From: Hyperthermus sp.
GTDB lineage: Archaea > Thermoproteota > Thermoprotei_A > Sulfolobales > Pyrodictiaceae
Assembly (NCBI GenBank): GCA_003978665.1
Contig: QNYQ01000027.1
Coordinates: forward strand, 1-52,498
Direction of reading: 5' to 3'
DNA: 52,498 nt
Part shown: positions 13,043 through 52,492 of the stretch, piece after piece
Layout of the letters: each line of letters starts with the position of its first letter
Numbering within the stretch: position 1 is the stretch's first letter
Program-made: the position numbers and the translations under genes
The notes under the pieces: generated by a model
The model's database searches: none
Seen by the model: only the letters and a program-made list of their open reading frames with translations
What the model was told of the DNA's origin: nothing

Positions 13043-13065
13043 CCTGTGCCGCGGGGCGCCGTGCC

Positions 13066-15212: not shown

Positions 15213-15356
15213 CCCGGCCTGAAGCCTTAGGAGGAGGCTTGAGGGTGAGGAATCCTAGTCCAGCTGAGCCCCCGTGCCTCTAGGGTATTACTGAGGCTTA
15301 GGCTTTGACTCTTACTCCCGTCCTCTCTCAAACCCTCTAGCATTGGGTGTTCTTGC

Positions 15357-16230: not shown

Positions 16231-16358
16231 ATGGAGCAAGGCCCCACAGACCCTGGACTCCTGGGAGGGGGAAAGAGGGGTCTGAAGGGGTGGAGCACGC
16301 TCATAGTTCTAGTATAGCTCAAGCAGTCTAGCAAAGGCATCGCTACTGGAGTCTTTCT

Positions 16359-16799: not shown

Positions 16800-16892
16800 T
16801 TCAAACTACCCCGGCTCCCTCTATCCTAACGCCCCTTAACCTCTTAGGTTGACTGAGCAGTGTTTAATACAGGGCACACCCCTCCCCCTCTA

Positions 16893-17013
16893 ACCGCTAG
16901 AGCAATACATTCGCCGGGGGCTCGATGAAGACGTGTAATGAGCCTACGGCGGTACCGTAGCAGCCGCGTATAGTGGCTGGTGGGGAGGCAGCCGGGCCTT
17001 GAGGCCCCTTTTT
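16893..17013 (+). ncRNA. candidate structured leader or small RNA ending in hairpin + T5 just before nmd3
   Basis: TATA-like TTTAATA at 16863-16869. Three consecutive hairpins: GGCTC/GAGCC (16919-16944), CTACGG/CCGTAG (16944-16960) and CAGCC/GGCTG (16961-16979). Then GGGCC-TTGA-GGCCC (16994-17007) followed by TTTTT (17009-17013). Confidence 0.25.
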
Positions 17014-17043
17014 CCCCCTTCTCGTTCTCCCCTCTAAGGGATC

Positions 17044-17811
17044 GTGGCCTGCTACCTGCTCTGGGTGATCGTTGGCTTGTACTGTGCTCGTTGCGGGAGG
17101 AGTGTTGATGAACGATATGTTTTGAGTGGTTTGTGCATAGACTGTTTCCTGGAGCTTAACCGACTGCTCTGTGTCCCTGAAAGACTTAGCTTTGACTACT
17201 GTAGGGCCTGTGGCTCTGTTAGGCTTGGCTACCGCTGGGTTGAGGCCGGCGGCTTAGAGGAGGCTTTCCTCACCTACCTCAGGGGTTTTATGGATAGGAG
17301 GGTTAGGGCGTGTAGTAGTGTTGTGGAAGAATACTGGGTTGAAGAGATAGTTGCCCTCACAAAGCCCTCGTGGAGGAGCGTGTTTAGGGTTAGGTTTGGG
17401 CTTAGGCTTAGGGGGGTTAGCGGTGTCGCCCACCAAGACTATATCGTGGAGGCCTACGCCTCCCCCACCCTCTGCCCATTATGCAAGAGGGCTAGGGCGG
17501 GCGACTATGATGTAGTGGTGAGGCTTCGTGGCGCGAGCCCGGAGAAGATAGCAAGCGTTCTCGCACCCCTGCTTGAGAGCGATGCCAGGCTAGTTAACTC
17601 GATACTTGACGTGGAGGAGCATAGGCAGGGTGTTGACGTATTCCTCCTAGACAAGTCGGCCCACTCAAGGATAATAAGAGAGCTGAGGAAACGCTACCAG
17701 GTTAACGTGAAGAAAGCGGCCGAGGATGTGGGAGTAGACTCTAGGGGTAGGCCCAGGCGCAGGCTCGTCCTCATGGTAAGCCTGCGTGAGCGTAGGCGTC
17801 GAGACAAGTGA
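17044..17811 (+). CDS. nmd3: NMD3-family protein (archaeal 60S-export-factor homolog, zinc-binding)
   Basis: The CARCG...CIDC, CRACG and CPLCKRARAGDYDVVVRLRG pattern is typical of NMD3 N-terminal domains. Alternative in-frame starts are GTG 17065 and TTG 17077. Confidence 0.75.
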   Translation: MACYLLWVIVGLYCARCGRSVDERYVLSGLCIDCFLELNRLLCVPERLSFDYCRACGSVRLGYRWVEAGGLEEAFLTYLRGFMDRRVRACSSVVEEYWVEEIVALTKPSWRSVFRVRFGLRLRGVSGVAHQDYIVEAYASPTLCPLCKRARAGDYDVVVRLRGASPEKIASVLAPLLESDARLVNSILDVEEHRQGVDVFLLDKSAHSRIIRELRKRYQVNVKKAAEDVGVDSRGRPRRRLVLMVSLRERRRRDK

Positions 17812-18191
17812 TGGGGGCTCTGGGTATGGGGAGGAGGGAGAGGCCGTTAAGCTTCAGCGACTATGAGAGAGCGCTCATGAGTACTACGCCTCTAGATGTT
17901 ATACGCGAAATAGAGGAGCAAACCCCCCGTGAGAGGAGTGGTGGGAGGCGTAGGAGACCCTACCCTACGGGCAGGGAGCTTGCAGAGGCTATAGTCGAGG
18001 TCTCCCAGGCCTATAATGGCCATCCCGACGACTTCCCCCAGGCTGTCATAGAATATCTTGAGGGTGAGGGCTTTGATACTAGGCACGTGACGGTGAAGCG
18101 GATATGGAGGATTTATGAGAGCCTGGTTCGCCGCAGGGTCATGGCTGACAGGCTGGGAGTTGTCCAGGAGGCTGGCCCGGCGGGCGCTTAA
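17808..18191 (+). CDS. hypothetical protein (127 aa), translationally coupled to nmd3
   Basis: The ATG overlaps the nmd3 TGA (ATGA). Confidence 0.45.
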   Translation: MMGALGMGRRERPLSFSDYERALMSTTPLDVIREIEEQTPRERSGGRRRRPYPTGRELAEAIVEVSQAYNGHPDDFPQAVIEYLEGEGFDTRHVTVKRIWRIYESLVRRRVMADRLGVVQEAGPAGA

Positions 18192-18249
18192 GCCTTTATG
18201 CCAGCGAGTACTTAAACCCAGCGGGGCTGTAGGGTTGAATGTAGAGTGA

Positions 18250-18669
18250 GTGAGGTTGAAGGTTGTACTTAGACATGAGGGTACATGGCTGCTGGTGAGG
18301 GAGGTCTACGCTATACGTAGGCAGAGGGGTAAGCGTAGGGGTAGGCAGAGGCAGACGAGCGCGCCTTACGGTACGGTGGCTGAGAGCGTGGATAAGCCTC
18401 CTCTCAACGGGCTGCGCTACACGGAGTCGATCGAAGTCCCTGCCACTAAGGTCATGAAGTTTATTGTTAAGGCCTTCCAGCTTCCGGGCGATACTACTAT
18501 AGTGGTTAAGCCCCTTACGAGGGAGAGCTATGAGGCAAAGATATATGCTAAGACCAGGGAGGAGGCTGCGAGGGCGCTAGCACAGCTGGCTAGGCTCTTG
18601 TCCGAGCTGGGGAGGAGGCGTGGGGGAGAGGAGCAAGAGCAGGCTGAGAGTGAAGAGGAAGAGGTTTGA
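18250..18669 (+). CDS. hypothetical protein (139 aa) with basic N-part and acidic tail
   Basis: ORF track. GTG start. C-terminal EEQEQAESEEEEV. Confidence 0.4.
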   Translation: MRLKVVLRHEGTWLLVREVYAIRRQRGKRRGRQRQTSAPYGTVAESVDKPPLNGLRYTESIEVPATKVMKFIVKAFQLPGDTTIVVKPLTRESYEAKIYAKTREEAARALAQLARLLSELGRRRGGEEQEQAESEEEEV

Positions 18670-19012
18670 GCCCCCCGTTCTCTGCGAGGTGTGCGGTGTC
18701 AGGAGGGCTGAACGCGTCTGCCCCCTCTGTGGTAGAATGGTCTGCTCAAGCCACTACGATGAGGACAGGGGTATTTGCAGTCTCTGTGCAGAAACGCTGT
18801 GCGAGAACTGTGGGAGAAACCTCTCTATCACCCAGTGTCCCGTGTGCGGTAGCCTTGTCTGCTCGGACTGCTCTGTCCAGCTCACCCCTGTGGTGAGGAT
18901 CTGCACTAGGTGCGCGTCTAAGCGTGTGAGCCTCGACGATATAGCCAGGAAGGAGGTAGTGATGCTCGCTGAGTCCCTCAGAAAATACTTGGTTGTTGCG
19001 GCTGGGAGGTAG
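18620..19012 (+). CDS. multi-CxxC zinc-ribbon protein
   Basis: Seven CxxC pairs (CEVC, CPLC, CSLC, CENC, CPVC, CSDC, CTRC) plus a CSSH lie within about 90 aa. Possible later GTG start at 18650. Confidence 0.5.
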   Translation: MGERSKSRLRVKRKRFEPPVLCEVCGVRRAERVCPLCGRMVCSSHYDEDRGICSLCAETLCENCGRNLSITQCPVCGSLVCSDCSVQLTPVVRICTRCASKRVSLDDIARKEVVMLAESLRKYLVVAAGR

Positions 19013-19023
19013 AGGCCCCCCTC

Positions 19024-19977
19024 TTACAGATACTTGTCGAGCGTGTCCCCGCCCCTCCTCAAGTCGCTGTGCTTTAGCCTTAGGGGTATTAGGTGTGAGC
19101 CGTCGCACGTGCTTGCCGTGTGCATGTACTGCAGCCCTTCCCTGCACGTAGCGAACTCTAGCCCGTATTTCTCGGCAATCTTCTTAACGGCCTCCATCAT
19201 GTTCTTCCGGAGCTTTAGAGGCAGGTACCAGTAGCCGTGAAGCCATGCTCCCTCCTCCCGGTAAAGGCGGTGCAGTCTTGCGCTGAGGTCGGGGAAAGCG
19301 TTGGCTAGTCTTTTGAGAGAGTCCGGCCTGGCCTTGTAGGTTGAGGTCACGAGGAACCTTACCCCAATGCTTGCAGCAGCCTCGATAACAGCCTCTACGT
19401 GCTCTCGCTCAGAGTTTAGGTAGGGTATTATGGGGTCGAGCCTCAAGCCTACGGGCACGCCAGCGTCTACGAGCCTCTTCATAGCCTTAACCCTTTCTGA
19501 GGGGGGAGGGGCGCCAGGCTCTAGTCGCGCGGCCAGGCTCTTGTCAAGGGTTGTTACCGTGACTGTTACGGCTGCGTTTCCTCTAGACAATATGTCTGCG
19601 TCGCGGGCAACCATGCTGCTCTTCGTTATCACCAGCACGCGGTAGCCTCTGGGGAGAAGCAGCTCCAGCGTCCACCTCGTAAGCCTGTATTGCTCCTCTT
19701 CGGGGGGATAGGGGTCACTGCTCGTGGCAATGTCTATGTGGAGGCGTGGGTTAATCCTGGCCAGGTCCCGGACCAGCCTCTGCTTATAGTCCCTCTTAGG
19801 CCGACTGTTCTTGACACCGATGTAGGATGTTGCATAGCAGTAGAGGCAGAAGTGGCTGCAGCCCGTGTAGGGGTTGAGGGAGTATTTTAGGGGGCATGTG
19901 CAGAGGGGGCTCCGCCATGGATCGAAGAGTCTTATGAGGCTTCCCTCCCTCAACCTAACCCTCAGCTTCCGCTGCAC
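19024..19977 (-). CDS. radical SAM protein, SplB/COG1533-like (DNA repair photolyase-like family)
   Basis: YTGCSHFCLYCYATSY (Cx3Cx2C followed by YA). About 317 aa, with a TIM-barrel-like pattern. Confidence 0.8.
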   Translation of the reverse strand: MQRKLRVRLREGSLIRLFDPWRSPLCTCPLKYSLNPYTGCSHFCLYCYATSYIGVKNSRPKRDYKQRLVRDLARINPRLHIDIATSSDPYPPEEEQYRLTRWTLELLLPRGYRVLVITKSSMVARDADILSRGNAAVTVTVTTLDKSLAARLEPGAPPPSERVKAMKRLVDAGVPVGLRLDPIIPYLNSEREHVEAVIEAAASIGVRFLVTSTYKARPDSLKRLANAFPDLSARLHRLYREEGAWLHGYWYLPLKLRKNMMEAVKKIAEKYGLEFATCREGLQYMHTASTCDGSHLIPLRLKHSDLRRGGDTLDKYL

Positions 19978-20004
19978 ACTTTTCCTCCTCTCCCCCTAGC
20001 CGTG

Positions 20005-20637
20005 CTAGAACTCTATGTTTGCGTGCTTGGCCCTCAAGTCATCCTCTTTTTTACCCAGCCTATTCATCAACTCCACTACTATGCCGTCGAGGAAGGCTAG
20101 TGCAGTGTCTTCGAAAAGCGTGCCCAGGGGTGCTAGGGGCTCGTGTATGCCGAGTATTTGTCTCGCGAAATAGTCTATGTCCGGTGCCGACTTCGTCCGG
20201 CCGGGAACCTCTACAACTATGTCTGCCAGCTGTCCGAGGGGGCTCTCGGGGTAGCTGGTTATTGCAGCCACTGTAGCCTCAACCTTCTTGGCAGCCTCAG
20301 CCGCGGTCACTATGAGCTTGGTTCTCCCGGAGCCGGAGATGGCTACTACGAGATCCCCCCTCCCTATGCTCGGGGTGATGGTTTCGCCGAGCACGTAAAC
20401 GTTGAAGCCTAGGTGCATGAGCCTCATCGCGAAGGCCTTGCCCACCAGCCCGCTCCTCCCCGCACCCATAACAAGCACTTTTGCACGACGCTTATAGGAG
20501 CTTATTAGAGCGTCTAAGAGCTTCTCGACCTGGCCAGCGTTAAGCCTCTCCGCAACCCTATCTATGAACAGGGCTATCTCTCTCATAGTTCTAGCGACGT
20601 ATTCCATCTCCCCTAGGCCTCCCGAGGAGAGCTCCAC
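20005..20637 (-). CDS. hxlB: 6-phospho-3-hexuloisomerase (SIS domain)
   Basis: [53 protein letters not shown] is the classic PHI/SIS signature. Confidence 0.8.
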
Positions 20638-20796
20638 CGCTAGAAGAGAGACGGCAGCATAGGGTTTAGAAAGCTAGCGCGTCTTCAACCCCGCTGCTAT
20701 AGGATTAAGTCGAGGGGAAGACCAGTCTCCCACCCCCATTAGGCGAAACCTTAACAGACCTTCACGCGGGAGGACCCGCGGGGGTGCTGCAGCGGC

Positions 20797-23769
20797 TTGG
20801 CCAGCGAGACAAGTGTTCTTGCGAGGCGTGAGCCTGTAAACAGGTTTGCAGCCTGGCTCTACGAGGTTGCCGAGAAGTGGCAGCGGAGGTGGCGGAGTGA
20901 TAGGGTTTTCGAGGCCAACCCCGACCCCTCGAAGCCAAAGTTCTTCATCACGGCTGCCTTCCCGTACCCTAACAGCCCCCTCCACCTGGGCCATAGTAGG
21001 ACCTACACCATAGCCGACGTCCATGCCAGGTTTAAGAGGATGCTGGGCTATAATGTGCTCTTCCCGATGGGCTTCCATTATACTGGGACACCTATTCTCA
21101 CGATGGCCGAGGCTATAGCTGCGGGGGACGAGGAGCTTATCGACCTCATGCTTAACGTCTACGATGTCCCGGCCAGTGAGCTTGACAGGTTGAAGGATCC
21201 TCTTTCCCTCGCAAGATTTTTCCACGAGGACGCGAAGAAGGCTATGAACGCTATGGGGTATAGTATAGACTGGAGGAGGGAGTTCACCACAATAGACCCT
21301 GAGTTCCAGAAGTTCATTGTATGGCAGTACACCAAGCTTAGGGAGAAGGGGCTGATCACTAAGGGGACTCATCCCGTAGGCTGGTGCCCTAAACACAACA
21401 TGCCCGTGGGGATGCATGACACCAAGAACGATGTGGAGCCCGAGATAGAAGAGTTCACTCTCATACTCTTCCGCCACGGGGAGGAGTTCTTTCCCGCAGC
21501 AACCCTGCGGCCCGAGACAGTGTTCGGCGTCACCAACCTCTGGGTAAACCCGGATGCCACCTATGTTAGGGTGAGGGTTGACGGTAGGGTTTACGTGGTC
21601 AGCAAGGAGGCGGCGTGGAAGCTGTCCTTCCAGAAGGATAGCGTGAATGTTGTCGGTGAGGTTAAGGGGAGGGAGCTTGTGGGGATTAGGGTTGTTAACC
21701 CGGCAACGGGCAGAGAGGTTCCGGTGCTCCCAGCATCATTTGTCGACCCCTCCACGGCCACCGGCGTGGTTATGAGCGTGCCAGCCCACGCACCCTACGA
21801 TTACGTGGCGTTGAAGGAGATGGTTGAGTCCCAGAGGGAGCTGCTGGAGTCTATAGGAGTGAGCGTGGACTCCCTCAAGCCAATCCCGCTGATAAGGGTT
21901 AGGGGCTACGGCAGTATCCCGGCCAAGGACATTGTGGAGAGAATGGGCATTAGTAGTCAAGCTGAGAGGTTGAAGCTTGACGAGGCCACTAGGACGCTAT
22001 ACAGCGACGAGTACCATGAGGGCGTGATGAGAGACGACATAGTGAGCCTCGTGTACCCGGACGCGCCGAGCGAGACAAGGGTTTTCATAAAAGCTCCCGT
22101 GGAGGCTTGGATCCGGGGGGCTAGCGTTAGGGATGCTAGGGAGGCAACCAGGAAGTGGCTTTCAGCTCTAGGCTTCACCGACGTGATGTATGAGATATCT
22201 AACAAGCCCGTCTACTGTAGATGTGGCACGGAGATAGTGGTGAAAGTGCTCAAGGACCAGTGGTTCATAAACTATGGTGACAGGGAGTGGAAGAAGACCG
22301 TACTAGAGCTCATAGACAACATGGCTATAGTCCCCCATGAGATGAGGGAGGAGTTTCTGAAAACCGTTGACTGGCTGCACGAGAGGGCTGTAGCCCGCAC
22401 CCGCGGGCTCGGGACAGAGCTTCCCTGGGCTAGGGGGTGGCGTATAGAGAGCTTGAGCGACTCTACTATATACATGGCGTTCTACACTATAGTCCACAAG
22501 CTCAAGCGCTACGGTATAAAGCCCGAAAAGCTCGGGGTGGAGTTCTGGGACTACGTGCTCCACGGCAGAGGCGACGTAGACAAGCTATCCTCATCGACGG
22601 GCTTAGACAGGAAGATTATAGAGGATTTGAGGGAGGAGTTTAACTACTGGTATCCGCTGGATGCAAGGCACAGCGGCAGAGACCTTGTACCAAACCACCT
22701 AACCTTCTTCATATTCCACCACGCAGCCCTATTCCCTAAGGACAAGTGGCCTCGGCAAATAGTGGTTAACGGCTTCGTAAGGCTTGAAGGAAAGAAGATG
22801 AGCAAGAGCCTAAGAAACATCATCCCCTTGAGGAGGGCGGTGAAGGTATATGGTCCAGACACTATCAGAGCTGCGCTGCTGGCCTCAGCCGAGCTCCTAC
22901 AGGATGCAGACTTCTCGGACAATCTAGCAATGAGTGTTCTCTCCCAGCTGGCCAAGCTGCTAAGATACCTAAAGCTTGTCGAGAAGGCTGATGGTGAAAG
23001 CGGGCTTGCGGACCGCTGGCTGCTAAGCAGGCTCCAAGACCATATTAGCAATGTGACCAAGTATATGAGCGAGCTACGTACAAGACATGCAACAATAACA
23101 CTCCTTTATGACATGGACAACGACGTGGTAAAGTACCTGGCTATTAGAGAGAGGCCTGGGCCAGCGCTTAGAGAGTACCTGGAGAAATGGGTGCTAATGC
23201 TCTCGCCCATAACACCGCACATAGCCGAGGAAATATGGCACATGCTAGGCCACGACACCTACGTATCGCTAGAGCACTGGCCCGTACCCGACCAGACCAA
23301 GATAGATAGGAGAGTAGAGCTCGCAGTAGAGTATGCTGAGAGGCTCATAGAAGACATTAGGGCAGTGCTTAGAGTAGTTAAGACTAAGCCTACAAGAGCA
23401 ATAATACTCGTCACCAGGCCCGAGAAATGGCCGCTGGCACAACAGGCTGCTGCCGTCATCAAGAAAGGCGGCCAGGTCAGGGACATTGTTAGGGCACTAC
23501 TGGGCAAAGTAGCCGACAAGGACAGCGCCAAGAGCATCGTGAAGATGGTAGAGTACATGAGGCAGCAGAGCATGAGCTACCTTGAACTAGTCTCCACGGT
23601 CAGCGAGTTCGATGAGAAGAAAGCAATCGAGGACCTAGGCAGCTACATAGCAAAGAAGACCTCGATACCCTCAATAGAAGTCTACTACGCTGACGAGGCT
23701 CCCCCTCAAGTGCCTGCATCCAAGGTGAAGGCGGCTATTCCAGGACGCCCGTCAATCACAGTGCTCTAG
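20797..23769 (+). CDS. leuS: leucyl-tRNA synthetase
   Basis: HIGH-type PYPNSPLHLGH and KMSKS motifs, an archaeal-type editing domain and a length of 990 aa. TTG start. Confidence 0.95.
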   Translation: MASETSVLARREPVNRFAAWLYEVAEKWQRRWRSDRVFEANPDPSKPKFFITAAFPYPNSPLHLGHSRTYTIADVHARFKRMLGYNVLFPMGFHYTGTPILTMAEAIAAGDEELIDLMLNVYDVPASELDRLKDPLSLARFFHEDAKKAMNAMGYSIDWRREFTTIDPEFQKFIVWQYTKLREKGLITKGTHPVGWCPKHNMPVGMHDTKNDVEPEIEEFTLILFRHGEEFFPAATLRPETVFGVTNLWVNPDATYVRVRVDGRVYVVSKEAAWKLSFQKDSVNVVGEVKGRELVGIRVVNPATGREVPVLPASFVDPSTATGVVMSVPAHAPYDYVALKEMVESQRELLESIGVSVDSLKPIPLIRVRGYGSIPAKDIVERMGISSQAERLKLDEATRTLYSDEYHEGVMRDDIVSLVYPDAPSETRVFIKAPVEAWIRGASVRDAREATRKWLSALGFTDVMYEISNKPVYCRCGTEIVVKVLKDQWFINYGDREWKKTVLELIDNMAIVPHEMREEFLKTVDWLHERAVARTRGLGTELPWARGWRIESLSDSTIYMAFYTIVHKLKRYGIKPEKLGVEFWDYVLHGRGDVDKLSSSTGLDRKIIEDLREEFNYWYPLDARHSGRDLVPNHLTFFIFHHAALFPKDKWPRQIVVNGFVRLEGKKMSKSLRNIIPLRRAVKVYGPDTIRAALLASAELLQDADFSDNLAMSVLSQLAKLLRYLKLVEKADGESGLADRWLLSRLQDHISNVTKYMSELRTRHATITLLYDMDNDVVKYLAIRERPGPALREYLEKWVLMLSPITPHIAEEIWHMLGHDTYVSLEHWPVPDQTKIDRRVELAVEYAERLIEDIRAVLRVVKTKPTRAIILVTRPEKWPLAQQAAAVIKKGGQVRDIVRALLGKVADKDSAKSIVKMVEYMRQQSMSYLELVSTVSEFDEKKAIEDLGSYIAKKTSIPSIEVYYADEAPPQVPASKVKAAIPGRPSITVL

Positions 23770-25028: not shown

Positions 25029-26750
25029 ATGGGCTTGTCTCGTGTACTCATACTTGACGGCTACACCGATGAGCCTGCTGGCTTTGGGGTTCCACCCTAC
25101 ATTGACGTCTACCCCAGGTATATTGCTGGTGCTCTATGGCTTGTGGACCCTGGCATTGTAGTGCACTATGTCACTGTTGATGAGGCTAGGAGGGACCTGG
25201 AGGGTTTCTTGGAGAGAGCCAACAGCTACGACCTTGTGGTCTTTATTGCAGGAGCCATTGTCCCCGGCAAGTACATTGGAGGGGAGCCTATTAGGCTAGA
25301 GGAGTTGAAGTCTTGGCCCGCCATGCTTGAGAGGCCTTTCAAGGTCCTCGTGGGCCCGGCGGCGCGCTGGGGGATAGGTAACGAGGGCGGGAGTATAGCC
25401 GTGTTGCCGCGCGAGGTCAAGAGCTCTTTTGACGCCGTGGTAACCGGGGATGTTGAAGCCTATTTCTACGAGGCAGCTAGGCATGGGGTAGAGCATGCTG
25501 AGGAGTGGAGGGTGCTGGATGACCTAGAGTTGACAGGTAAGGCTGCCGTCAAGGGGGCTAGGATAGTTAGGCAGCACCCAAACCACGGCTATAACCTCAT
25601 AGCCGAGATCGAGACCTACCGTGGCTGCGCTAGATGGATCACCGGCGGCTGCAGCTTCTGCGCAACAAGACTCTACGGCAGGCCCAGGCAGAGAACCCCT
25701 CTTAGCGTGGTAAGAGAGGTTGAGGCACTCTACCTTGAGGGTGTCAGGCACTTCCGGATCGGAAGGCAGGCAGACATAATCGTTTACGGCAGCCGGGAGC
25801 TGGGCGAGGAGGAGTGGCCCAAGCCCGAGCCCGAAATGCTTAGGAGGCTCTTCCACGGGCTGAGAATGGTTGCTCCAGGGCTTGAGACGCTCCACATAGA
25901 TAATGTAAACCCGGGCACGCTCGTAAGGCATCGCGAGGAGAGCGTTGAAGCCCTGAAGACAATAATAAAATACCACACGCCAGGCGATGTTGCAGCGCTA
26001 GGCATTGAAACAGCCGACCCGCGGGTAGTGAAGATAAACAACCTCAAGACAATGCCCGATGAAAGCCTGGAGGCGGTGAGGCTAGTTAATAGAGTGGGGA
26101 ATAAGCCCTCTCCCCTAGGCCTGCCCGAGCTGCTGCCAGGCATAAACTTTGTTCTCGGATTACCCGGGGAGACCAGTGAGACGTACAGGCTTAACCTGGA
26201 GTTCCTAGAGAGGATCTACGAGGAGGGGCTTCTCGTAAGGCGCATAAACGTGCGCAAGGTCCTCGTCCTGCCTGGGACAAGGCTTGTGAAGGAGAAGGTG
26301 CTGGAGAGGCTTAGGAGGCATGAGAGGCTCGCTAAAATATTTAGGCGCGAGGTAATGCGCTACTCCAGGATGTTCCTGGAGAGACTATTGCCCAGAGGCT
26401 CTATCCTATGCTGCGTCTACGTGGAGAAGTATTCAGAATCCCTCGGAGTAACCTTCGCGAGGCAGGCTGGCAGCTACCCTGTCGTAGTAGAGCTGCCCTG
26501 CAAGCTCCCACGCCGGATGCTGAAGAGAGTATTCATCTACGACGTCTCCGCTAGAAGCGTGAGGGGACTACCCCTCCCCCTAAACGCCAACACCACCCCC
26601 CTAACACTGCTCTCAAGGGTCCTGGGCCGCACGCTAGCACTCAGGATAGCGGGCAGCCGCCCGTTAAAAACGGAGGAAGAACTACAAAAAATACTAGGCG
26701 AGAAGGGAGGGGAGAGCCTAGTGTCCCTAAACGGGTTTAGCTGCAAGTAA
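25029..26750 (+). CDS. radical SAM protein, COG1031-like (Cys-free flavodoxin-like N-domain, Cx7Cx2C, TRAM-like barrel, C-terminal helix-hairpin-helix)
   Basis: ILDGYTDEPAGFGVPPYIDVYPRYIAGA at the N-terminus. YRGCARWITGGCSFCATRLYGRPRQR carries C200-x7-C208-x2-C211. TRAM-like LCCVYVEKYSESLGVTFARQAGSYPVVVEL. HhH-like LSRVLGRTLALRIAGSRPLKTEEEL. Confidence 0.85.
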   Translation: MGLSRVLILDGYTDEPAGFGVPPYIDVYPRYIAGALWLVDPGIVVHYVTVDEARRDLEGFLERANSYDLVVFIAGAIVPGKYIGGEPIRLEELKSWPAMLERPFKVLVGPAARWGIGNEGGSIAVLPREVKSSFDAVVTGDVEAYFYEAARHGVEHAEEWRVLDDLELTGKAAVKGARIVRQHPNHGYNLIAEIETYRGCARWITGGCSFCATRLYGRPRQRTPLSVVREVEALYLEGVRHFRIGRQADIIVYGSRELGEEEWPKPEPEMLRRLFHGLRMVAPGLETLHIDNVNPGTLVRHREESVEALKTIIKYHTPGDVAALGIETADPRVVKINNLKTMPDESLEAVRLVNRVGNKPSPLGLPELLPGINFVLGLPGETSETYRLNLEFLERIYEEGLLVRRINVRKVLVLPGTRLVKEKVLERLRRHERLAKIFRREVMRYSRMFLERLLPRGSILCCVYVEKYSESLGVTFARQAGSYPVVVELPCKLPRRMLKRVFIYDVSARSVRGLPLPLNANTTPLTLLSRVLGRTLALRIAGSRPLKTEEELQKILGEKGGESLVSLNGFSCK

Positions 26751-26827
26751 TAAACCCCGTCCAAGACCCTTACGCTTAGGGTGTGCGGGGAAAGAGGGGG
26801 GTGGGCTAAAAGCCATAGCATTCAGCT

Positions 26828-26856
26828 AAATAGTTTTTAAGTTTGCTTTATTGAAA
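26828..26856 (+). promoter_or_regulatory. AT-rich promoter region (AAATAGTTTTTAAG / CTTTATTGAAA) for 26898..28739
   Basis: This is the only strongly AT-rich stretch in the 147-bp spacer, 45-70 nt upstream of the start. Confidence 0.4.
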
Positions 26857-26897
26857 TCTTAGCTTGCAGTAGCTTTGTGGGCGAAGGACTGTGTTGA

Positions 26898-28739
26898 GTG
26901 ATGAGGGAAGAGGGTATGGATGAGAGCATGAAGCCGTTAGAGAAGTCTAGGGCGGACAGCGGGCTGCTTGACGCTCCCAGCATCTTCGATGCTAAGAGCG
27001 GGAGGATCACTATAAACGGTAGGGAAATCGCCTTCGGAGGCCCCCTCCCGAGGCTCGGGGAGGGGGAGAAGCTTATCGCCTATACCACGAGCCTCTGCCC
27101 CTACTGCTACAGGGTGCTGCCCGCAGTCATCTTCGAGAGGGAGGGCAAGGTCTTCATTAAGAGGACTTGCCCGGAGCACGGCACCATCGAGGAACTATAC
27201 TTCAGCAGCTCCAGGCTCTACCATAGGTTTATGAGGTTTGAGGAGGAGGGTATAGGCGTAACCCCTCACGTCAAGCTTAGGTCCCCCTGCCCCTTCAACT
27301 GCGGCCTCTGCCCCCGCCACAAGAACCACACGGCACTGGCCAACCTTGTGGTCACTAACCGCTGTGACCTCTCATGCTGGTACTGTTTCTTCTACGCCGA
27401 GAAGGTGGGCTACGTCTATGAGCCGAGCCTTGAGCAGATTAGGGAGATGATAAGGCAGTATAGGAAGGAAGGAGTGAGCATGGCCGTACAGATCACTGGC
27501 GGGGAGCCCACGCTCCGCCCGGACCTACCGGAGATAATAAGGCTGTTGAAGGAGGAGGGGGTTACCCATATACAGTTAAACACTCATGGAGTAACGTTCG
27601 CTAGGATGTGGTTCGAGGAGGGAGTTGAGGCCGCCGTTAAATATGCTAGGGTTCTCCGTGAAGCCGGGCTTAACACGGTATACATGAGCTTCGACGGTGT
27701 AACCCCCAGAGCCAACCCGAAGAACCACTGGGAGGCCCCCTACACGCTTGAAGTATTCCGGAAGGCCGGGGTTACCAGTGTCGTGCTAGTCCCCACCGTT
27801 ATAAAATCCATTAATGACGGAGAGCTCGGCGACATCATAAGGTTCGCGGCCAAGCACATAGACGTTGTCAGGGGAGTCAACTTCCAGCCCGTAAGCCTCA
27901 CCGGGAGGATGAGGAGGGATGTTAGGGAGAAGTATCGTGTAACAATACCAGATGTGCTGCAATGGGTCGAGGAGCAGACAGACGGCCAGATACCGGCCGA
28001 GTCATGGTTCCCCATCCCGGTCGCAGCAAAGTTCTCCTATTTCATCGAGGCGTTGAGCGGAGAGCTGAAGGTGTGCATGGGCAACCACCCCGCCTGCGGC
28101 TCTGCTACGTACGTGTTCATCGAGAGGGGGGCCGACGGCCTACCCTCAAGGTTCATACCGATAACGTCCTTCTTCGATGTTGAAGGCTTCATAGAGTACA
28201 TAGAGGAGAAGACGGGGGAGCTCCGCAAAACAGAGGATGCACTATTCTCAAGGTTCAGGAAGACCTTGCAGGCAGCATCCATACTAAAAGACCTGCCAAA
28301 GTTTATTGATAGGGAGAAGCTGCCCCAGGGACTCAACATAACCAAGCTGCTCATGAACGTGTTTATAAAAAGGAACTATGAAGCCCTAGGCCAGCTCCAC
28401 TACAAGATGCTATTCCTGGGGAACATGCACTTCATGGACCTCTACAACTATGACGTGGAGAGGGTGATGAGATGCAACATACACTACCTCTCGCCGGACG
28501 GCAGGGTAATACCGTTCTGCGCGTACAACGTACTCAACGACATCTACCGCGACAACATACTATGGAAGTATAGGATCGGGCTCGACGAGTACAAGAAGAG
28601 GTACGGAGAGAAAAGCGTAGGGCCCGGAGTCAAATACGTCAGGAACATAAAGCTCCTGAAGAGCACACCAATATACTACGAAGCCTACAAGGGAATAGTA
28701 CCGGACAGCGTGCTCAAGGGAGGAGCCGCCAAGAGCTAA
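26898..28739 (+). CDS. tes: radical SAM protein, tetraether lipid synthase (Tes / GDGT-MAS)-like
   Basis: N-terminal rubredoxin-like CPYC...CPEHG, then CPFNCGLCPRHKNHT, the radical SAM motif NRCDLSCWYC and ITGGEPTLRP. Length of 613 aa. The family assignment is from memory of MJ0619/Tes-type proteins. The CDS call is firmer than the function. Confidence 0.75.
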   Translation: MMREEGMDESMKPLEKSRADSGLLDAPSIFDAKSGRITINGREIAFGGPLPRLGEGEKLIAYTTSLCPYCYRVLPAVIFEREGKVFIKRTCPEHGTIEELYFSSSRLYHRFMRFEEEGIGVTPHVKLRSPCPFNCGLCPRHKNHTALANLVVTNRCDLSCWYCFFYAEKVGYVYEPSLEQIREMIRQYRKEGVSMAVQITGGEPTLRPDLPEIIRLLKEEGVTHIQLNTHGVTFARMWFEEGVEAAVKYARVLREAGLNTVYMSFDGVTPRANPKNHWEAPYTLEVFRKAGVTSVVLVPTVIKSINDGELGDIIRFAAKHIDVVRGVNFQPVSLTGRMRRDVREKYRVTIPDVLQWVEEQTDGQIPAESWFPIPVAAKFSYFIEALSGELKVCMGNHPACGSATYVFIERGADGLPSRFIPITSFFDVEGFIEYIEEKTGELRKTEDALFSRFRKTLQAASILKDLPKFIDREKLPQGLNITKLLMNVFIKRNYEALGQLHYKMLFLGNMHFMDLYNYDVERVMRCNIHYLSPDGRVIPFCAYNVLNDIYRDNILWKYRIGLDEYKKRYGEKSVGPGVKYVRNIKLLKSTPIYYEAYKGIVPDSVLKGGAAKS

Positions 28740-30803: not shown

Positions 30804-31964
30804 TTAGCTAACGGGCTCGTATACTATGCCGAGCCTGCTGGCAATACTATACGCCTCTTCTATCTCATCCCTCCTTAAGCTCCTAGCTATCTCCCTCCAC
30901 CTCCTAGGATACTTGAGCACCATGTGCTCTGGCCTATACTGGTCCATTATGTTTACGAGCACCTTGTCGAGTCTCAAGTTGCTGGCTATCCACTCCAGTA
31001 CTCTTCTCGTGCAGCACTCCACGTGGCCTGGGAGGACTAGGTGGCGTATAATCATGTCGCCGTTCTCCGCGGCTATTTTCAGGTTTCTTGTGACGACTTC
31101 AAAGTAGTTTGGGACAGCTGACAGTCTTAGGGCGCACTTGTTGTTGCCGTACTTGAAGTCGGGGAGCCAGAGGTCTATTAGGTCGCTCAATACGAGTGTC
31201 GCGTCAAGGGTCATGTACATGTTGGAGTTCCATATCTGGGGCACGTTCACGTCGAGGAACTTGAAGGATTCCACTATTACGTGGAGGCTTGGAGTGGGCT
31301 CGCCGCCTACATGGTTTATGTTCCTTGCGCCGTGAACCCGCAGCTCCCTCTGTATTAGAGCGAGCCGTCTTGCATCAACTCTTCCAGCCATCCTGGGATA
31401 TACCTGGCTTATGTCGTAGTTTTGGCAGTAGACGCACGTGAAGTTGCAGCCCCCGTAGAATATTGTTCCGCTCGGAACCAGGGGTGGCTCCTCGCCCAGG
31501 TGGTGGAACCAGCTGTGGACGTAGACGTTGTAGTCCAGCCTGCACGCGCCAATACTCTTCTCCCTATCTACGCCGCACCTTCTCTCGCATAGCCTGCAGG
31601 GTTTTGAGAGCAGCTTGACGATCCTCACGTCGACGTCAAGGAGGCTGGTGGAGGGGGGGCTTCTACTGTCTCTCCTATAGTCTTCGAGGCTGTATTTGCC
31701 GTGTAGCGCATGCGTGACTAGGCCTTCTAGCTCGCGTCTGTAGCTCCTCCTGGCATCCTTCAACTCCTCCAAGCCCATGTCATCAATTCTTTCAGGCACC
31801 TCAACAAGCTTAGCCAACAGGAACTTTGCCGGGGCATCATCCCGCATGACAGCATAGTACCAGGACAGAGCCCTCCTAACCCTAACATCATCCCACACGA
31901 GAACAGCGTCTGGACGGAGCCTAGCCCACAGCCCGGCCGGGACATACCGGTCGAGCAAATGCAT
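30804..31964 (-). CDS. radical SAM protein, PflX/COG1313-like (pyruvate formate-lyase activase homolog)
   Basis: YGGCNFTCVYCQNYDISQ plus an upstream Cys cluster CRLCERRCGVDREKSIGAC. Confidence 0.8.
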   Translation of the reverse strand: MHLLDRYVPAGLWARLRPDAVLVWDDVRVRRALSWYYAVMRDDAPAKFLLAKLVEVPERIDDMGLEELKDARRSYRRELEGLVTHALHGKYSLEDYRRDSRSPPSTSLLDVDVRIVKLLSKPCRLCERRCGVDREKSIGACRLDYNVYVHSWFHHLGEEPPLVPSGTIFYGGCNFTCVYCQNYDISQVYPRMAGRVDARRLALIQRELRVHGARNINHVGGEPTPSLHVIVESFKFLDVNVPQIWNSNMYMTLDATLVLSDLIDLWLPDFKYGNNKCALRLSAVPNYFEVVTRNLKIAAENGDMIIRHLVLPGHVECCTRRVLEWIASNLRLDKVLVNIMDQYRPEHMVLKYPRRWREIARSLRRDEIEEAYSIASRLGIVYEPVS

Positions 31965-48333: not shown

Positions 48334-48666
48334 TTGTTCGACGAGCTTAAGCGTCTTCTCCGAGACGGGTTCTGCGACAAAGTGGTTGTGGTTGAGGAGT
48401 CTGGGTCGTGTAGCCTCGTGTACTGTGGCGGGAGGCTTCCCCTGCTCTTGGCTCTCGCGAAGTGGAATGAGTGGTTTTATGTTAAGGCTGTTGCCGAGAA
48501 GATTGTTGCAGCCCACATGTGGCATTGCAGCGACATATTCTACAATCCCTACGGAGTATACGTGTTCCGTACGGGAGAAGATGAGGTTGTGGATGCTCTA
48601 AGGGAAAAGGAGAAGTATATCGTCGCGCAGGCTAGGCTCGCCGAGCTTAGGGCTCTGGGCGCTTAG
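48334..48666 (+). CDS. hypothetical protein (110 aa)
   Basis: ORF track. Starts 3 nt after the DUF364 stop. Its end overlaps the convergent 366-aa gene by 4 nt. Confidence 0.4.
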   Translation: MFDELKRLLRDGFCDKVVVVEESGSCSLVYCGGRLPLLLALAKWNEWFYVKAVAEKIVAAHMWHCSDIFYNPYGVYVFRTGEDEVVDALREKEKYIVAQARLAELRALGA

Positions 48667-49763
48667 AGGCTCACCCTGCAGTGCGCCAGCCCCCTCATGC
48701 ACAAGGCTAGTGCAGCGGAGGGATATGCCTGGTTAATGTTCTTCAGCTCTACGATATCGAACACCCTACCCTCAGCCAGCAGTAGCAGTACCTCCTGCTC
48801 CTCCCTGCTCAACGCCTCCTGCTCTATAAAGCTCTCTATCGAAGCTATCATTGCCGCCAGCTCATCCACACCAGTCTTGACCAGGCGCGAGGCGAGGCGG
48901 CTTATGCTCTCCTTAACCTTCTCGGCCTTCTCCAGCTCCTCGCGGGCCCTCCTAACACGCTCCACCAGCTCTATCGAGGACCCAGCATTCCTTAATGCCT
49001 CCAGCTCGTTCTTGGACGCCATCGCATGCGATAACAGCTCGTGCAGTAGTTTGCAAGCTGTGCTAGACCCGTCACCATTACAGTTCGCCAGCGCCTTCGA
49101 CGCCTCGATCACTAGCTGGGAGGACCGCTTGGACAGTATTGCAGCGTCTCCAAGCACCGAGGCTATGTGCTCCAGCGACGCCAGCGCCTCCTTTAGGCTC
49201 GTTTTCTCGGCAAGTGCTGCTGCAAGGGAGATCACGTGGAGCCTCTTGACCCCGACATTCCTCTCTAGCATGACCGAGCTCCTATATATGCTTGCCAGTA
49301 CCTTGCTGAGCCTCTGCCACTCCCTCACCACAGTGTACAGGTTTTCCTCGAGCCCTCCGCCGCCAGCGGCTAGGAGAGCCCTAACTATGTGTGCCAGGGG
49401 GCCAGACGCCTTAACAACCCGGAGGAGGAGTTCGGCCGCGCCCCGCCCCATGCAGCCTATCCTGCCACCGTCCAGCGCGTAGTCGGTGTCTAGAAGCTTC
49501 AGCACATAGTCTTTCGACACGCTCCTACACAGGTTGCCTGCCTCCTCTACAGCGTTATCGAACCTACCTACATCTATGTACTCTAGCAGCCTCTGGGCAA
49601 TAGCCTTGTACCGGGCTACGTCAAGACCTCCCTCACTGATCATGTACTCTACCGCACTAGTTATCTTCTTCAGCTCGTTCAGGCTCCTAGCAGTCGACTC
49701 AGCCTCCCTAACCAATGACTCGTACTGGGCTATCATTCTCGGGAGTAGGAGGGACTGCATCAC
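48663..49763 (-). CDS. all-helical protein (366 aa) with C-terminal winged-helix-like segment; partner of the 910-aa NTPase
   Basis: The GTGATG start overlaps the NTPase TGA. Leu/Ala/Glu-rich helical sequence. C-terminal SREEQEVLLLLAEGRVFDIVELKNINQAYPSAALALCMRGL. Confidence 0.6.
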   Translation of the reverse strand: MMQSLLLPRMIAQYESLVREAESTARSLNELKKITSAVEYMISEGGLDVARYKAIAQRLLEYIDVGRFDNAVEEAGNLCRSVSKDYVLKLLDTDYALDGGRIGCMGRGAAELLLRVVKASGPLAHIVRALLAAGGGGLEENLYTVVREWQRLSKVLASIYRSSVMLERNVGVKRLHVISLAAALAEKTSLKEALASLEHIASVLGDAAILSKRSSQLVIEASKALANCNGDGSSTACKLLHELLSHAMASKNELEALRNAGSSIELVERVRRAREELEKAEKVKESISRLASRLVKTGVDELAAMIASIESFIEQEALSREEQEVLLLLAEGRVFDIVELKNINQAYPSAALALCMRGLAHCRVSL

Positions 49764-52492
49764 AATCCTTCACCCCCTATGAGGGCCTCCTCCCTGGCAT
49801 CATACCTGGACTCTTCTATGCCGAAGAGGCCTGCTATGCGCGCAGTGATCATCTTCTTCTCCTCCTCTATAGACTCTATCATGTGGAGGCTATCAGACAT
49901 CCCCGTAAGCCTGCCTAGTAGCCCTATCGCATTCTCCAGGTACTTCTCCAGGCTTGCGAGATCCCTCATTGACGCCACGTCTGCGCGAAGAGCCTTCTCG
50001 AGCTCATCCCTCACCTTGGCCGGGAGGGGGTCTGCTGCATCGTGCACCTGCCTATACAGCTTCGCGATCCTATCAAGCCTCTCCTCAAGCCTTATCAAGA
50101 GCTCTTCTAGCGCGTCCTCGTTAACAACCGGAAGGATTGCCGGGAGAGACTCTGAGAGTACCTCTAAGAGTTTGCTGAGCTTTTCGAGGGAGCCTACCCG
50201 GGGCATACCAGTAATCATCTCCGATATTCTCCTCAGCCTGGCCAGCATGCTCTCCCCATCCTCACCGCTACCCTTTAGGCCGAGCAGCATGTCTAGCAGC
50301 TGAAGCCCGCTCGTCGCCTCACACCCCTCTAGCAGGCTTTGGAGGCGGGGCAGCTGGTCCAGCACACCCGCTATCGCGTCCTTTACCTCCTCTAGCACGG
50401 CGCGCTTAACGACGATCTCTCTTGCCGGCTTCACGCCAGTCACAGCCGATATTTCACGTATGAGCTTCTGGACTGTGGGTATTGTGTTCTTCAAGCTCTC
50501 GATCTCGGCCTCCAGGGCTTCCTCTCCCTTAGATGCCACGCTGCCTATTCTCTCGGCGAGGGCGGAGGGGATGGGCTGCTCCATCCTGGACAGTGTAGCC
50601 CGGAGCCTATCCAATACGCTGGTGTTATGTGACATGGCGTCCAGGATGACGCTCTTCAACATGTCCGTGTATATTTGGATGCTCCTCTTCTCGCTAGACC
50701 CCAGGTTCTCAGGCATGCAGCCGTGAAGCCCTATTGTTAGAGCGTAGAGGAGGGCGTAAGTGAACAGGCTTAGCCTCTGCCCCATAGCCACTATCGGCAC
50801 GCCGAGTGATTCGAGAGCCTTGGATATCGATGCCCCTATCCTAGCGTCCTCCCTCACGGCAGGGAGGAGGACAATGGTCTTCTCCCCGGAGACAGCACGG
50901 CACGCCGCTACACGTGCAACATGGTGCAGTAGGGGAGGTGAGGCTATTAGAATGCTAATCCCCCTCCGCTCCTCTATAGTGTTGAGGCCTAGGAAGCCCT
51001 TAACCCTCTCCCAGTGCTCGGCCAGCTCCTCGGGGGATAGGTCGTCAACAACCCTTGAAACCTGGTCTACACCAGCCTTCCTCGCGCATCCCACCAGCGG
51101 GCTGCTTCCAGCGATAGGGTATATTCTCGTGAGCATGCCGGGCTTGAGATACACTACTGGCTCCTCTAGCCTAAAAGGCTCCGGCGCGATAATGTCTGGG
51201 TTCAATGACTCAAGAATCCTTGCAACATTAGGGTCGTCGCCATAGATCTCGCGTGACACGTCAGCAGCTATAGTGAAGAGCTCGCGGAGGAGCTGAGGAT
51301 CATAGGGTAGCACACCCCCATTCTCGTAGGCAGACACCACGTACTCCAGTACTGTCAAGGCACGCTCAACAGACTGGCCGCTCACATTCCATATCCTTGC
51401 AGCCTTCTCCATCCACGAAGCAGCAGCGTCAACGAGCTCACTACTCCTAAGCCCCAGCCTCGTGACCCCGGTGACGGGCCCGGACCCGACCATTATACCG
51501 CCGCCGACGAGCCTCTCAACAATACTCAGCGGGACGGGGCCCGGCAGCACTGCTAGTATGGGGGCAATCTTAGGGTCATCAATAAACCTCTTAACGTCAC
51601 GGTAGCCCTGCCTGTCGAAGAGGGGAATACCCTCCACAATCTCCCTTGTGAGAGCCTCCTCGCCAAGCAGGAACGCCTCAACCCTCTCGACACCAGACTT
51701 GAAAGCATCCATCAACCCGGGCACAATACTGTCAACCATCAACTTAACCCATGCAACCCTACCCTTAGAAGCCCACCACACCATGTTGGCTACAAGGCCT
51801 CTGAGAGCAGGATCGTCTACAAGCCCCTCAAGCTGCCCCTCAATAATATTCTTGGGGAGGAGAGGAATAGTGTAAACCCTACTACGCCACGCAACAGGCC
51901 CGAACACAGCCTCCTTAAGGGTGGAGGACGGGCCCAGCGCGAGAACCACGTAGACCGGTATGGAACGAGTACGAATAGCCTCTGCAAGCCCGCGGAGGGG
52001 GCTAGTCTCGTGCTCCACTATGCCACGGAAAACATCATAGCTCTCCTCAACCTCGTCAATAAGCAATACCACCACACCGTTAACAGCCCCAAGCCTAGAC
52101 TCAACAAACTCGCGTACAACCTGAGGAAGCCTAGACTCGTGAATAGAACCATAACGCTCCAGAATAAAGTCAACAATATCAGCAAATTCAACCCTAAGCA
52201 CAGCCACGCCAAGCCTACTCCGAGAAAACCATTCAAGATGCCTCAATAAAGCCGTCTTACCACTACCATACGATGCAACCACAACAGCCATCCAATACTC
52301 GCTAGCAGAGCCCTCAACATAGCTGCGTATAAGCCCCTCGACCTCACTCCTAACCCTGGCATGCTCACCGCTATAATCACACCATCCCGACTCGAAACAC
52401 TGAATGCCAGAAGCAGTATCCATACCCCGGCTCCCAACGTGAACCTTAACAAGAAAGAGGCAATATAGTGGCAGAAAAACCCTCAGACCCAT
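49760..52492 (-). CDS. large P-loop NTPase (910 aa; ORC/Cdc6-, archaeal-ATPase- or BrxD/DUF2791-like core plus long helical C-terminal region)
   Basis: Walker A ASYGSGKT is encoded at 52253-52276. Walker B is VVVLLIDEVEE. Possible alternative start ATG 52423 (MDTASG). The gene begins 6 nt from the window edge. Confidence 0.75.
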   Translation of the reverse strand: MGLRVFLPLYCLFLVKVHVGSRGMDTASGIQCFESGWCDYSGEHARVRSEVEGLIRSYVEGSASEYWMAVVVASYGSGKTALLRHLEWFSRSRLGVAVLRVEFADIVDFILERYGSIHESRLPQVVREFVESRLGAVNGVVVLLIDEVEESYDVFRGIVEHETSPLRGLAEAIRTRSIPVYVVLALGPSSTLKEAVFGPVAWRSRVYTIPLLPKNIIEGQLEGLVDDPALRGLVANMVWWASKGRVAWVKLMVDSIVPGLMDAFKSGVERVEAFLLGEEALTREIVEGIPLFDRQGYRDVKRFIDDPKIAPILAVLPGPVPLSIVERLVGGGIMVGSGPVTGVTRLGLRSSELVDAAASWMEKAARIWNVSGQSVERALTVLEYVVSAYENGGVLPYDPQLLRELFTIAADVSREIYGDDPNVARILESLNPDIIAPEPFRLEEPVVYLKPGMLTRIYPIAGSSPLVGCARKAGVDQVSRVVDDLSPEELAEHWERVKGFLGLNTIEERRGISILIASPPLLHHVARVAACRAVSGEKTIVLLPAVREDARIGASISKALESLGVPIVAMGQRLSLFTYALLYALTIGLHGCMPENLGSSEKRSIQIYTDMLKSVILDAMSHNTSVLDRLRATLSRMEQPIPSALAERIGSVASKGEEALEAEIESLKNTIPTVQKLIREISAVTGVKPAREIVVKRAVLEEVKDAIAGVLDQLPRLQSLLEGCEATSGLQLLDMLLGLKGSGEDGESMLARLRRISEMITGMPRVGSLEKLSKLLEVLSESLPAILPVVNEDALEELLIRLEERLDRIAKLYRQVHDAADPLPAKVRDELEKALRADVASMRDLASLEKYLENAIGLLGRLTGMSDSLHMIESIEEEKKMITARIAGLFGIEESRYDAREEALIGGEGL

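Follow-up and report, generated by a model that had tools for sequence, protein, structure and literature searches.

A predicted AAA+ ATPase and its helical partner in Hyperthermus and related archaea, possibly an effector-less derivative of a defence module

Two overlapping genes close to the end of a contig of the archaeon Hyperthermus sp. (QNYQ01000027.1, assembly GCA_003978665.1) raise the question of whether a P-loop NTPase and a helical protein form a defence system of their own. A first-pass annotation of this stretch, which is the complete contig of 52,498 nucleotides and is called the window below, was made from the letters alone and proposed a candidate uncharacterised two-gene system, an NTPase translationally coupled to a helical partner, of a kind frequent in defence systems. 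The proposal of an uncharacterised, coupled pair held, in that neither protein matched a known family and the two genes stood together in 12 of 12 comparable loci; the reading as an autonomous two-gene defence system was weakened, the evidence favouring a derived remnant of a larger system. The explanation towards which we lean, with modest confidence, is that the pair derives from a defence sensor/scaffold module, has lost the effectors and was retained by vertical descent, acting as an ATP-driven, probably DNA-associated switch or scaffold. Sequence is compatible with either immunity or a host function as its present role. The pair is uncharacterised and yet no categorically new kind of system: it is an effector-less variant of the AAA+ scaffold module of Dpd-, DISARM- and BREX-type systems.

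Reading of the minus strand recovered both open reading frames (ORFs), the Walker A and Walker B motifs and the TGA/GTGATG overlap as they had been annotated:

49760-52423, minus strand: predicted AAA+ ATPase gene, 887 aa including the start, stop TGA at 49760-49762, identical to database protein P0001.
48663-49763, minus strand: partner gene, predicted all-helical protein of 365/366 aa with six conserved cysteines (C79, C104, C228, C237, C355, C362).
49758-49763, minus strand: GTGATG overlap, in which the ATPase stop TGA (49762-49760) overlaps the partner start (GTG 49763 / ATG 49760).

The arrangement of the overlap indicates translational coupling of ATPase and partner. The ATPase ORF itself is real, while the start given for it was moved: the mechanical ORF reaches 52492 (910 aa), and this start was dropped for the ATG at 52423, since in an alignment of 30 homologues the proteins begin at the position of M24 in the long ORF. 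The 5' extension is non-coding, because the homologues begin at the ATG at 52423 and the upstream ATG overlaps a conserved promoter element described below. That both ORFs are real genes and not chance ORFs is indicated by 34 full-length homologues, 34-57% identical, and by motifs that are invariant in 30 sequences.

All 34 homologues are annotated as hypothetical proteins. Their sources are Pyrodictium occultum, P. delaneyi and Hyperthermus butylicus as well as metagenome-assembled genomes (MAGs) of Pyrodictiaceae, Desulfurococcales and Thermoproteota. When 1.84 billion cluster representatives were searched by profile with no filter applied, only 11 clusters of this short size class at 50% identity were returned. 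Twelve independent loci of the short type (the window, L001, L002/3, L006-L011, L013, L037 and L038) contained enough sequence to show the adjacent gene, and in all twelve the partner lay directly downstream of the ATPase; in related loci the two genes either overlap or leave a gap that is mostly below 10 nt and never exceeds 48 nt. A word-index homologue search with the partner returned only itself and a search with its profile two relatives; its homology was set up from the loci by tblastn and hhalign.

Weaker homologues of the ATPase, 1000-1118 aa in length, were classified as the long type. Alignment of the short type with 27 long-type ATPases by hhalign gave a probability of 100% and an E value of 4e-111 over 585 columns (residues 7-601), the N-terminal cysteine motif included. 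The window-type partner aligned over its full length with the second gene of the long-type loci (probability 93%, E value 3.8e-7), the strongest signal being a common C-terminal motif, LCxxGxxxCxVxL. In these loci the gene order is ATPase, a helical protein of 374-436 aa, a helicase of 875-990 aa, a protein of 776-910 aa and a PLD nuclease of 241-258 aa. Six such loci were studied:

L016, 10286-17807: Pyrodictiaceae MAG.
L017, 4934-20128: Culexmicrobium.
L018, 2097-13207: Vulcanisaeta.
L019, 3163-14831: Caldivirga.
L020 (L020/21), 7968-22157: metagenomic.
L022, 66-10570: metagenomic.

The second gene and the helicase were present in all six, so that the linkage of ATPase and partner, which the first-pass annotation had asked to be examined in other genomes, extends to both types. 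The PLD nuclease was found in each of the five loci that extend far enough; L016 stops inside the fourth gene, so that a nuclease would not be visible there. The helicase matches the PADLOC model of DpdJ (E values 1e-39 to 1e-58), with secondary matches to DrmA, DruE and Cas3; the fourth protein shows weak similarity to the C-terminal part of DpdJ, and the nuclease matches DpdK (1e-9 to 1e-11) and DrmC. A DpdA-DpdC fusion occurs in at least three of the six loci (L017, L019 and L020; E values 1e-67 to 1e-75 for L017 and L020). A second TGT-like gene and a BrxD-like ATPase are further components of L017 and L020, and L020 has in addition QueF and a Vut_1 preQ transporter.

The DpdJ/DrmA-like helicase, the PLD nuclease and, in several loci, the DpdA-DpdC genes identify the long-type locus, as judged by these matches, as a Dpd/DISARM-like modification-dependent restriction island. 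By gene position, the ATPase-partner dyad appears in it at the place that canonical Dpd gives to DpdG/H/I. The five-gene operon is apparently undescribed and unnamed. The window pair resembles it in the homologous ATPase, the homologous partner, the same gene order and the tight overlap or abutment of the genes. It differs in having no helicase, fourth gene, PLD nuclease or DpdA-DpdC, in an ATPase about 110-230 aa and a partner about 10-70 aa shorter, and in belonging to a clade of its own, with its own promoter element and a housekeeping context.

A remoter group of proteins of approximately 1070-1180 aa matched the ATPase region only (E values 1e-24 to 1e-10). One of them, P0081, was found in the following setting:

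L033, 2-10799: remote relative P0081 (1084 aa), in the order PglX-like C-terminal fragment, ATPase, 481-aa protein, 143-aa protein, PglZ, BrxL.

The 481-aa protein is helical and ends in ...LAQKGLIKVRIEL. From this gene order the remote ATPase appears to take the BrxC position of a BREX-like operon, which suggests that some BREX variants use an ATPase-partner dyad in place of BrxC. Two other remote members have a helical protein of about 500 aa next to or near them, together with restriction-modification genes. The assignment of the NTPase to a class common in defence systems, made in the first-pass annotation, is thus borne out by relatives in Dpd/DISARM-like operons and in a BREX-like operon.

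None of the effector genes accompanies the short form. Searches by tblastn with the helicase, the fourth gene, the PLD nuclease and the L017 DpdA-DpdC fusion gave matches in long-type loci that extend far enough and none in the short-type loci, the window included, and neither a DpdJ helicase nor a DpdK PLD nuclease stands next to the pair in any of them. Around the pair in the window there is neither nuclease nor methylase, as had been observed at first reading. A neighbour-joining tree was computed from 586 columns covering the first 600 residues, with ten remote relatives as the root. In it the short type was monophyletic in 100 of 100 bootstraps and the long type in only 24 of 100; the short type therefore tends to arise within the long-type radiation. 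Hyperthermus sequences cluster together in this tree, as do those of Pyrodictium. There is moderate support for the view that the effector and modification genes were lost once, at the base of the short clade, and that descent was largely vertical thereafter.

Retention of the pair on the chromosome is argued from a core 65% identical, uniform GC content, housekeeping neighbours, downstream neighbours common across genera and a promoter element. The window is ordinary chromosome, with genes for LeuRS, SerRS, SHMT, MoaA, a PurP-type protein and geranylgeranyl reductase, and its GC content is uniform throughout. Upstream genes vary between lineages. Downstream of the pair, a 110-aa cysteine/histidine-rich protein is found in seven short-type loci and a DUF4213-DUF364 protein in four, and these common neighbours indicate conserved synteny in the Pyrodictium/Hyperthermus crown group. 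A syntenic core locus had been named at the outset as a finding that would speak against a patchily distributed defence module, and it was found in part: within Pyrodictium and Hyperthermus the locus is syntenic, uniform in GC, surrounded by housekeeping genes and in no obvious mobile island, while deeper-branching short-type loci have other contexts. A viral or mobile origin was ruled out, as no relative was found on IMG/VR viral contigs and no compositional anomaly was seen.

The transcription unit of the pair is complete inside the window, since the promoter element lies within its last 75 nt:

52474-52488, minus strand: conserved promoter/operator element GTCTGAGGGTTTTTC, 15 nt, BRE/TATA-like, 50 nt upstream of the ATG.

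This element is the sole exact match in the window to the pattern GTCYKAGGGYTTWWH, which occurs once per locus, 46-51 nt upstream of the ATPase start codon, in L001-L004, L006-L009 and L015. Its positions include:

L001, 9940-9954.
L003, 9930-9944.
L004, 8152-8166.
L006, 9936-9950.
L007, 9931-9945.
L008, 6483-6497.
L009, 465-479.
L015, 3777-3791.

The pattern ends in the TATA-like TTTTTAC, followed by a G-rich, Shine-Dalgarno-like stretch; it spans several genera and occurs in none of the long-type loci. Given its position and the archaeal TATA consensus, it is probably a promoter with a B recognition element (BRE) and TATA box, and possibly also a conserved operator (GTCYKAGGGTTTTTAC) for some regulator. 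The earlier suggestion that partners located upstream had been cut off by the window edge was abandoned: the pair has its own promoter in the last 75 nt, the upstream genes vary and the extra components of the relatives are located downstream.

Among the competing explanations, the one that survives best is that of an autonomous, active two-gene antiviral system, which would sense invading DNA and either block it directly, in a BREX-like exclusion with no cleavage, or trigger a generic host nuclease. The closer and remoter relatives all lie in defence operons, and the parts expected to act as sensors evolve fast, the C-terminal arm and the partner being about 24% identical compared with 65% for the motor. 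Neighbourhoods vary in the deeper branches: at L037 (1910-13601) a deep-branching short pair of 838 aa and 276 aa is found among Csx1 (CARF-HEPN), a HEPN protein, a PIN-MazE toxin-antitoxin pair and PaREP1, a region that is rich in defence and toxin-antitoxin genes, unlike the housekeeping context of the window. Nevertheless, we consider such a system improbable, as neither protein has a recognisable effector domain by Pfam, NCBIfam, PADLOC or Foldseek, the crown group is syntenic with uniform GC and housekeeping neighbours, viral and mobile contigs carry no relative, and the phylogeny broadly tracks taxonomy.

Full exaptation to a lineage-specific housekeeping DNA transaction, such as chromosome organisation, repair or replication-linked loading, with no immune role, overlaps with the explanation that we prefer and is in itself distinctly improbable. 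It would account for a stable chromosomal site among aminoacyl-tRNA synthetase and metabolic genes with conserved adjacent genes, for a promoter element kept across genera and for strictly conserved catalytic motifs. It is at odds with the narrow distribution (about 11 clusters at 50% identity among the 1.84 billion representatives searched), with a partner and a C-terminal arm that evolve very fast for a core machine, and with the occurrence of at least one locus in a region rich in defence and toxin-antitoxin genes. The pair was not seen in other Desulfurococcales either, and for Pyrolobus fumarii no match was apparent among the ATPase homologues found, although Pyrodictium and Hyperthermus genomes are represented there; this hints weakly that Pyrolobus may lack the pair, which would count against strict universality in the family.

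The motifs of the two proteins and the regions named in the following were located at:

52253-52276, minus strand: Walker A / P-loop ASYGSGKT (G53, S54, G55, K56 and T57 in 887-aa numbering), invariant in 30 homologues.
52043-52075, minus strand: Walker B strand VVVLLIDEVEE, D123 and E124 invariant in 30 homologues; strand E118-123 of the model.
51878-51892, minus strand: AWRSR, candidate arginine finger, R180 invariant and R182 nearly so, just ahead of predicted strand 5.
51758-51766, minus strand: KGR, candidate sensor-2 arginine in the helical lid, R222 invariant.
49826-50698, minus strand: fast-evolving C-terminal helical / coiled-coil region of the ATPase (residues ~576-866), helices in the AlphaFold2 (AF2) model.
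48666-48818, minus strand: C-terminal small helical domain of the partner, ending in the conserved LCxRGLxxCxVxL; candidate DNA-binding helix-turn-helix.

All ATPase motifs, GSGKT and LLIDE among them, are invariant over the 30 sequences. The AF2 model of the ATPase, built on the 30 homologues, has a mean predicted local distance difference test (pLDDT) score of 86 and shows an N-terminal hairpin, a five-stranded core of the additional strand, catalytic E (ASCE) class, a helical lid, a small helical unit, two alpha/beta domains (~310-575) and a helical tail of about 290 residues. The conserved CxxSGWCDxSxEH is placed on the N-terminal hairpin by both alignment and model. Mean pairwise identity falls from 65% in the core through about 50% in the lid and 47% and then 35% in the middle domains to 24% in the helical tail; it is likewise 24% in the partner. 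These values indicate, at the level of alignments, that the ATPase is under strong purifying selection and that the partner, tightly coupled to it, is fast-evolving. Cysteines of the ATPase are conserved at fixed positions: the CxxxxxC pair of the N-terminal motif, C446, C569 and C701. Those of the partner form three pairs, C79/C104, C228/C237 and C355/C362. The conserved cysteines of both proteins could be structural disulfides, a common feature of hyperthermophilic crenarchaea, or metal sites.

A distance of 67 residues separates the Walker A lysine from the Walker B aspartate, both in a single N-terminal domain, which rules out an SMC/Rad50-type protein. Walker A (GxxGxGK[ST]) and Walker B (hhhhDE) sit on the five-stranded ASCE core with the strands in the expected order, and an AAA+ fold with a C-terminal helical lid was recognised by structure comparison; the model thus identifies the protein as a predicted AAA+ ATPase of the ORC/Cdc6-STAND-like branch. 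Two helices (80-90 and 96-111) lie between strands 2 and 3 of the predicted core and, in this model only, they and R180, R182 and R222 occupy the positions expected for ISM/HEH, the finger and sensor 2. The designation of AWRSR as a candidate arginine finger is by likeness to ORC/Cdc6-type AAA+ proteins. The traits that mark the dyad family are all present, namely CxxSGWCDxSxEH, an APYGSGKT P-loop, a DEVEExYD Walker B and a helical partner (LCxxGxxxCxVxL) immediately downstream.

Neither protein had an above-threshold match in Pfam, NCBIfam or PADLOC, and single-sequence searches of PDB sequences gave no match for either; both represent families that current databases do not model. Scans of the two proteins and of the long-type and remote relatives against the same three collections produced just sub-threshold P-loop or coiled-coil noise. 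With Foldseek against PDB, the ATPase model matched RuvB, RFC subunits, ORC/Cdc6, the NB-ARC resistosome, ClpX and NSF with probability 1.0, at E values of 1e-4 to 2e-3 over about 300 N-terminal columns and with TM scores of 0.4-0.45 on the target. Structure comparison with BFVD returned the same generic AAA+ classes, and the remaining ~590 residues had no structural counterpart in the PDB Foldseek search. A full-length match to a characterised housekeeping family, for which the first-pass annotation had advised a search, was found neither in Pfam, NCBIfam and PADLOC nor by Foldseek. The heptad-like character that it ascribed to the last ~300 residues agrees with the model, helical over about 290 residues, and with a profile search of PDB sequences in which the tail matched only coiled-coil or designed helical-bundle proteins. 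Weak LmuB, JetC and ZorA matches were confined to this tail.

The AF2 model of the partner is all-helical, as first described, with a pLDDT of 70 and a small three-helix unit at the C-terminus; this model is limited in quality by the 3-sequence alignment on which it rests. The C-terminal ~50 residues are the best conserved part of the protein. That they form a winged-helix-like segment, also part of the original description, is no more than plausible, with pLDDT values of about 54-76 in this part of the model and no significant fold match.

The fold matches touch on another explanation, that of a STAND-like signalling or protein-remodelling NTPase which does not act on DNA and for which the partner would be a substrate or regulator. 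The weak sub-threshold Pfam matches of the ATPase to nSTAND_NTPase5, AAA_16 and AAA_22, together with NB-ARC, ClpX and NSF among the Foldseek matches, could be read in this way; they amount to generic AAA+ similarity at E values of about 1e-4, with no pointer to a protein-unfoldase ring over other AAA+ proteins, and the informative genomic associations are all with DNA enzymes (helicase, PLD nuclease, DNA transglycosylase, PglZ). We regard this explanation as very unlikely. A functionless, decaying relic of a former defence operon, which would explain the missing effector genes of the relatives, is effectively refuted, because intact frames in all loci examined, Walker A/B and arginines invariant in 30 sequences, a core 65% identical and a conserved promoter are incompatible with neutral decay over inter-genus distances.

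How closely, then, does the pair resemble systems already described? BrxC has been described as an ORC/Cdc6-type scaffold with winged helix-turn-helix, alpha+beta and coiled-coil extensions (PMC12839542), and a preprint equates DpdHI with BrxC and reports many uncharacterised Dpd-like and DISARM-like classes (bioRxiv 10.1101/2025.09.15.676423). The ATPase model shares with BrxC/PglY and DpdH+DpdI the layout of a large N-terminal AAA+ domain, lid, small helical unit, alpha/beta part and C-terminal coiled coil (compared with PMC12839542) and the position of the gene ahead of effector genes; with BrxC it also shares an aromatic-GSGK[ST] P-loop context. It differs in that BrxC is a single protein of about 1200 aa with no dedicated downstream helical partner, and neither PglX nor PglZ stands near the window pair. 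No ORF in the window has the size or type of PglZ (845-865 aa in these loci) or PglX (about 1200 aa); the other window ORFs of at least 573 aa are LeuRS, two radical-SAM genes and one of 675 aa, which is too short and was not scanned against Pfam.

Membership of the Dpd class is not apparent for the short form either, no short-type locus having DpdA (with DpdB/DpdC), DpdJ or DpdK. The DISARM core (DrmA, DrmB DUF1998 and DrmC PLD) was not found in the window, and the secondary DrmA and DrmC matches belong to the long-type helicase and PLD nuclease. BrxD (DUF2791) and PF01637, the families suggested by the first-pass annotation, share with the ATPase the general class of P-loop AAA+ protein with short Walker A-B spacing; their models gave no match at E<=1 in Pfam and PADLOC, and this suggestion was withdrawn. 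The BrxD-like proteins of the long-type islands are separate genes. Compared with ORC/Cdc6, RFC, RuvB and NB-ARC, the first ~300 residues have the same fold and Walker A and B, with candidates for an arginine finger and for sensor 2; sequence identity is just 12-16%, no Pfam AAA+ model matched at threshold, and no evidence for a replication or clamp-loading role of the ATPase was found.

We return to the reading of the pair as a retained defence sensor/scaffold module. The ATPase and the co-translated helical adaptor would form a complex, probably via the variable C-terminal arm, and the conserved C-terminal domain of the partner, small, HTH-like and bracketed by cysteines, would bind DNA. In the five-gene operons the dyad would most likely sense the status of DNA and recruit or license the helicase-nuclease, a part that has been proposed for BrxC in BREX systems. 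The Pyrodictiaceae-type lineage would have lost the helicase, nuclease and modification genes and kept the dyad, under purifying selection, as a chromosomal unit with its own promoter. In the lineage of the window, it presumably still binds nucleotide and DNA, and may act as a clamp or roadblock on its own, or together with partners whose genes lie elsewhere.

Several points weigh against this reading. The comparison with BrxC and DpdHI is one of architecture and gene position and not a demonstrated homology. Ten BrxC sequences, one from E. coli HS and nine from diverse plasmids, were aligned and compared by hhalign with the short-type, long-type and combined alignments, and the match was confined to the P-loop, at probabilities of 16-30%; with this result and no BrxC model match, membership of the BrxC family was rejected at sequence level. 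No superfamily member scanned matched a PADLOC or NCBIfam model of BrxC, DpdG, DpdH or DpdI or the Pfam BrxC_BrxD model, so that no relationship of the short and long forms to DpdG/H/I was detected with the PADLOC/NCBIfam models. The search for effectors covered gene neighbourhoods only, and effectors elsewhere in the genome could make this a dispersed complete system. The direction of evolution rests on a simple neighbour-joining tree with a very distant root. The partner model has a mediocre pLDDT of 70 and no significant structural match by Foldseek. Finally, complex formation, DNA binding, the sensor/scaffold role and any present role in defence are steps that we infer.

A more specific proposal can be made tentatively and is rather doubtful: the dyad, stripped of helicase and nuclease, would have been domesticated as a specifically regulated, vertically inherited host DNA factor, and its previously unrecognised family would stand in for BrxC/DpdHI in Dpd-like and BREX-like systems of archaea. 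If true, an ATPase-adaptor dyad of immune origin would clearly have been taken over for a host DNA function in the most extreme of the hyperthermophilic archaea; domestication would provide a case of defence-to-housekeeping exaptation in Archaea. The family fills the ATPase slot of an apparently undescribed archaeal Dpd/DISARM-like system and of a BREX-like variant; the five-gene archaeal operon is the more interesting by-product of the analysis. The stand-alone form is a natural experiment, a scaffold ATPase without effectors, and bears on how BrxC-type proteins work. The practical payoff is modest, as the hosts are hard to grow and there is no genetics for them.

Two further observations concern genes near the pair and elsewhere in the window. 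The 110-124-aa family of the cysteine/histidine-rich neighbour always adjoins the partner gene and has invariant C14, C26 and C31 and a motif MWHC...PYGxYxF. Its members were located at:

Window, 48334-48666, plus strand.
L001, 13905-14261.
L003, 13833-14195.
L006, 13906-14280.
L007, 13815-14186.
L008, 10436-10777.
L011, 13859-14215.

The orientation of this neighbour flips: it is convergent with the partner in five loci and co-directional in Hyperthermus and L011. In the window its stop codon overlaps the partner stop codon (48663-48666), leaving no space for a terminator. The family matched nothing in Pfam or PDB and has no member in the long-type and remote loci, and for these reasons it was dropped as a clue to function.

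The second observation is a cluster of three radical-SAM genes at 25029-28739 and 30804-31964 of the window, encoding proteins of 573 aa, 613 aa (with an HMPTM-type zinc ribbon) and 386 aa. This cluster adjoins the SerRS and LeuRS genes and is unrelated to the ATPase-partner pair.

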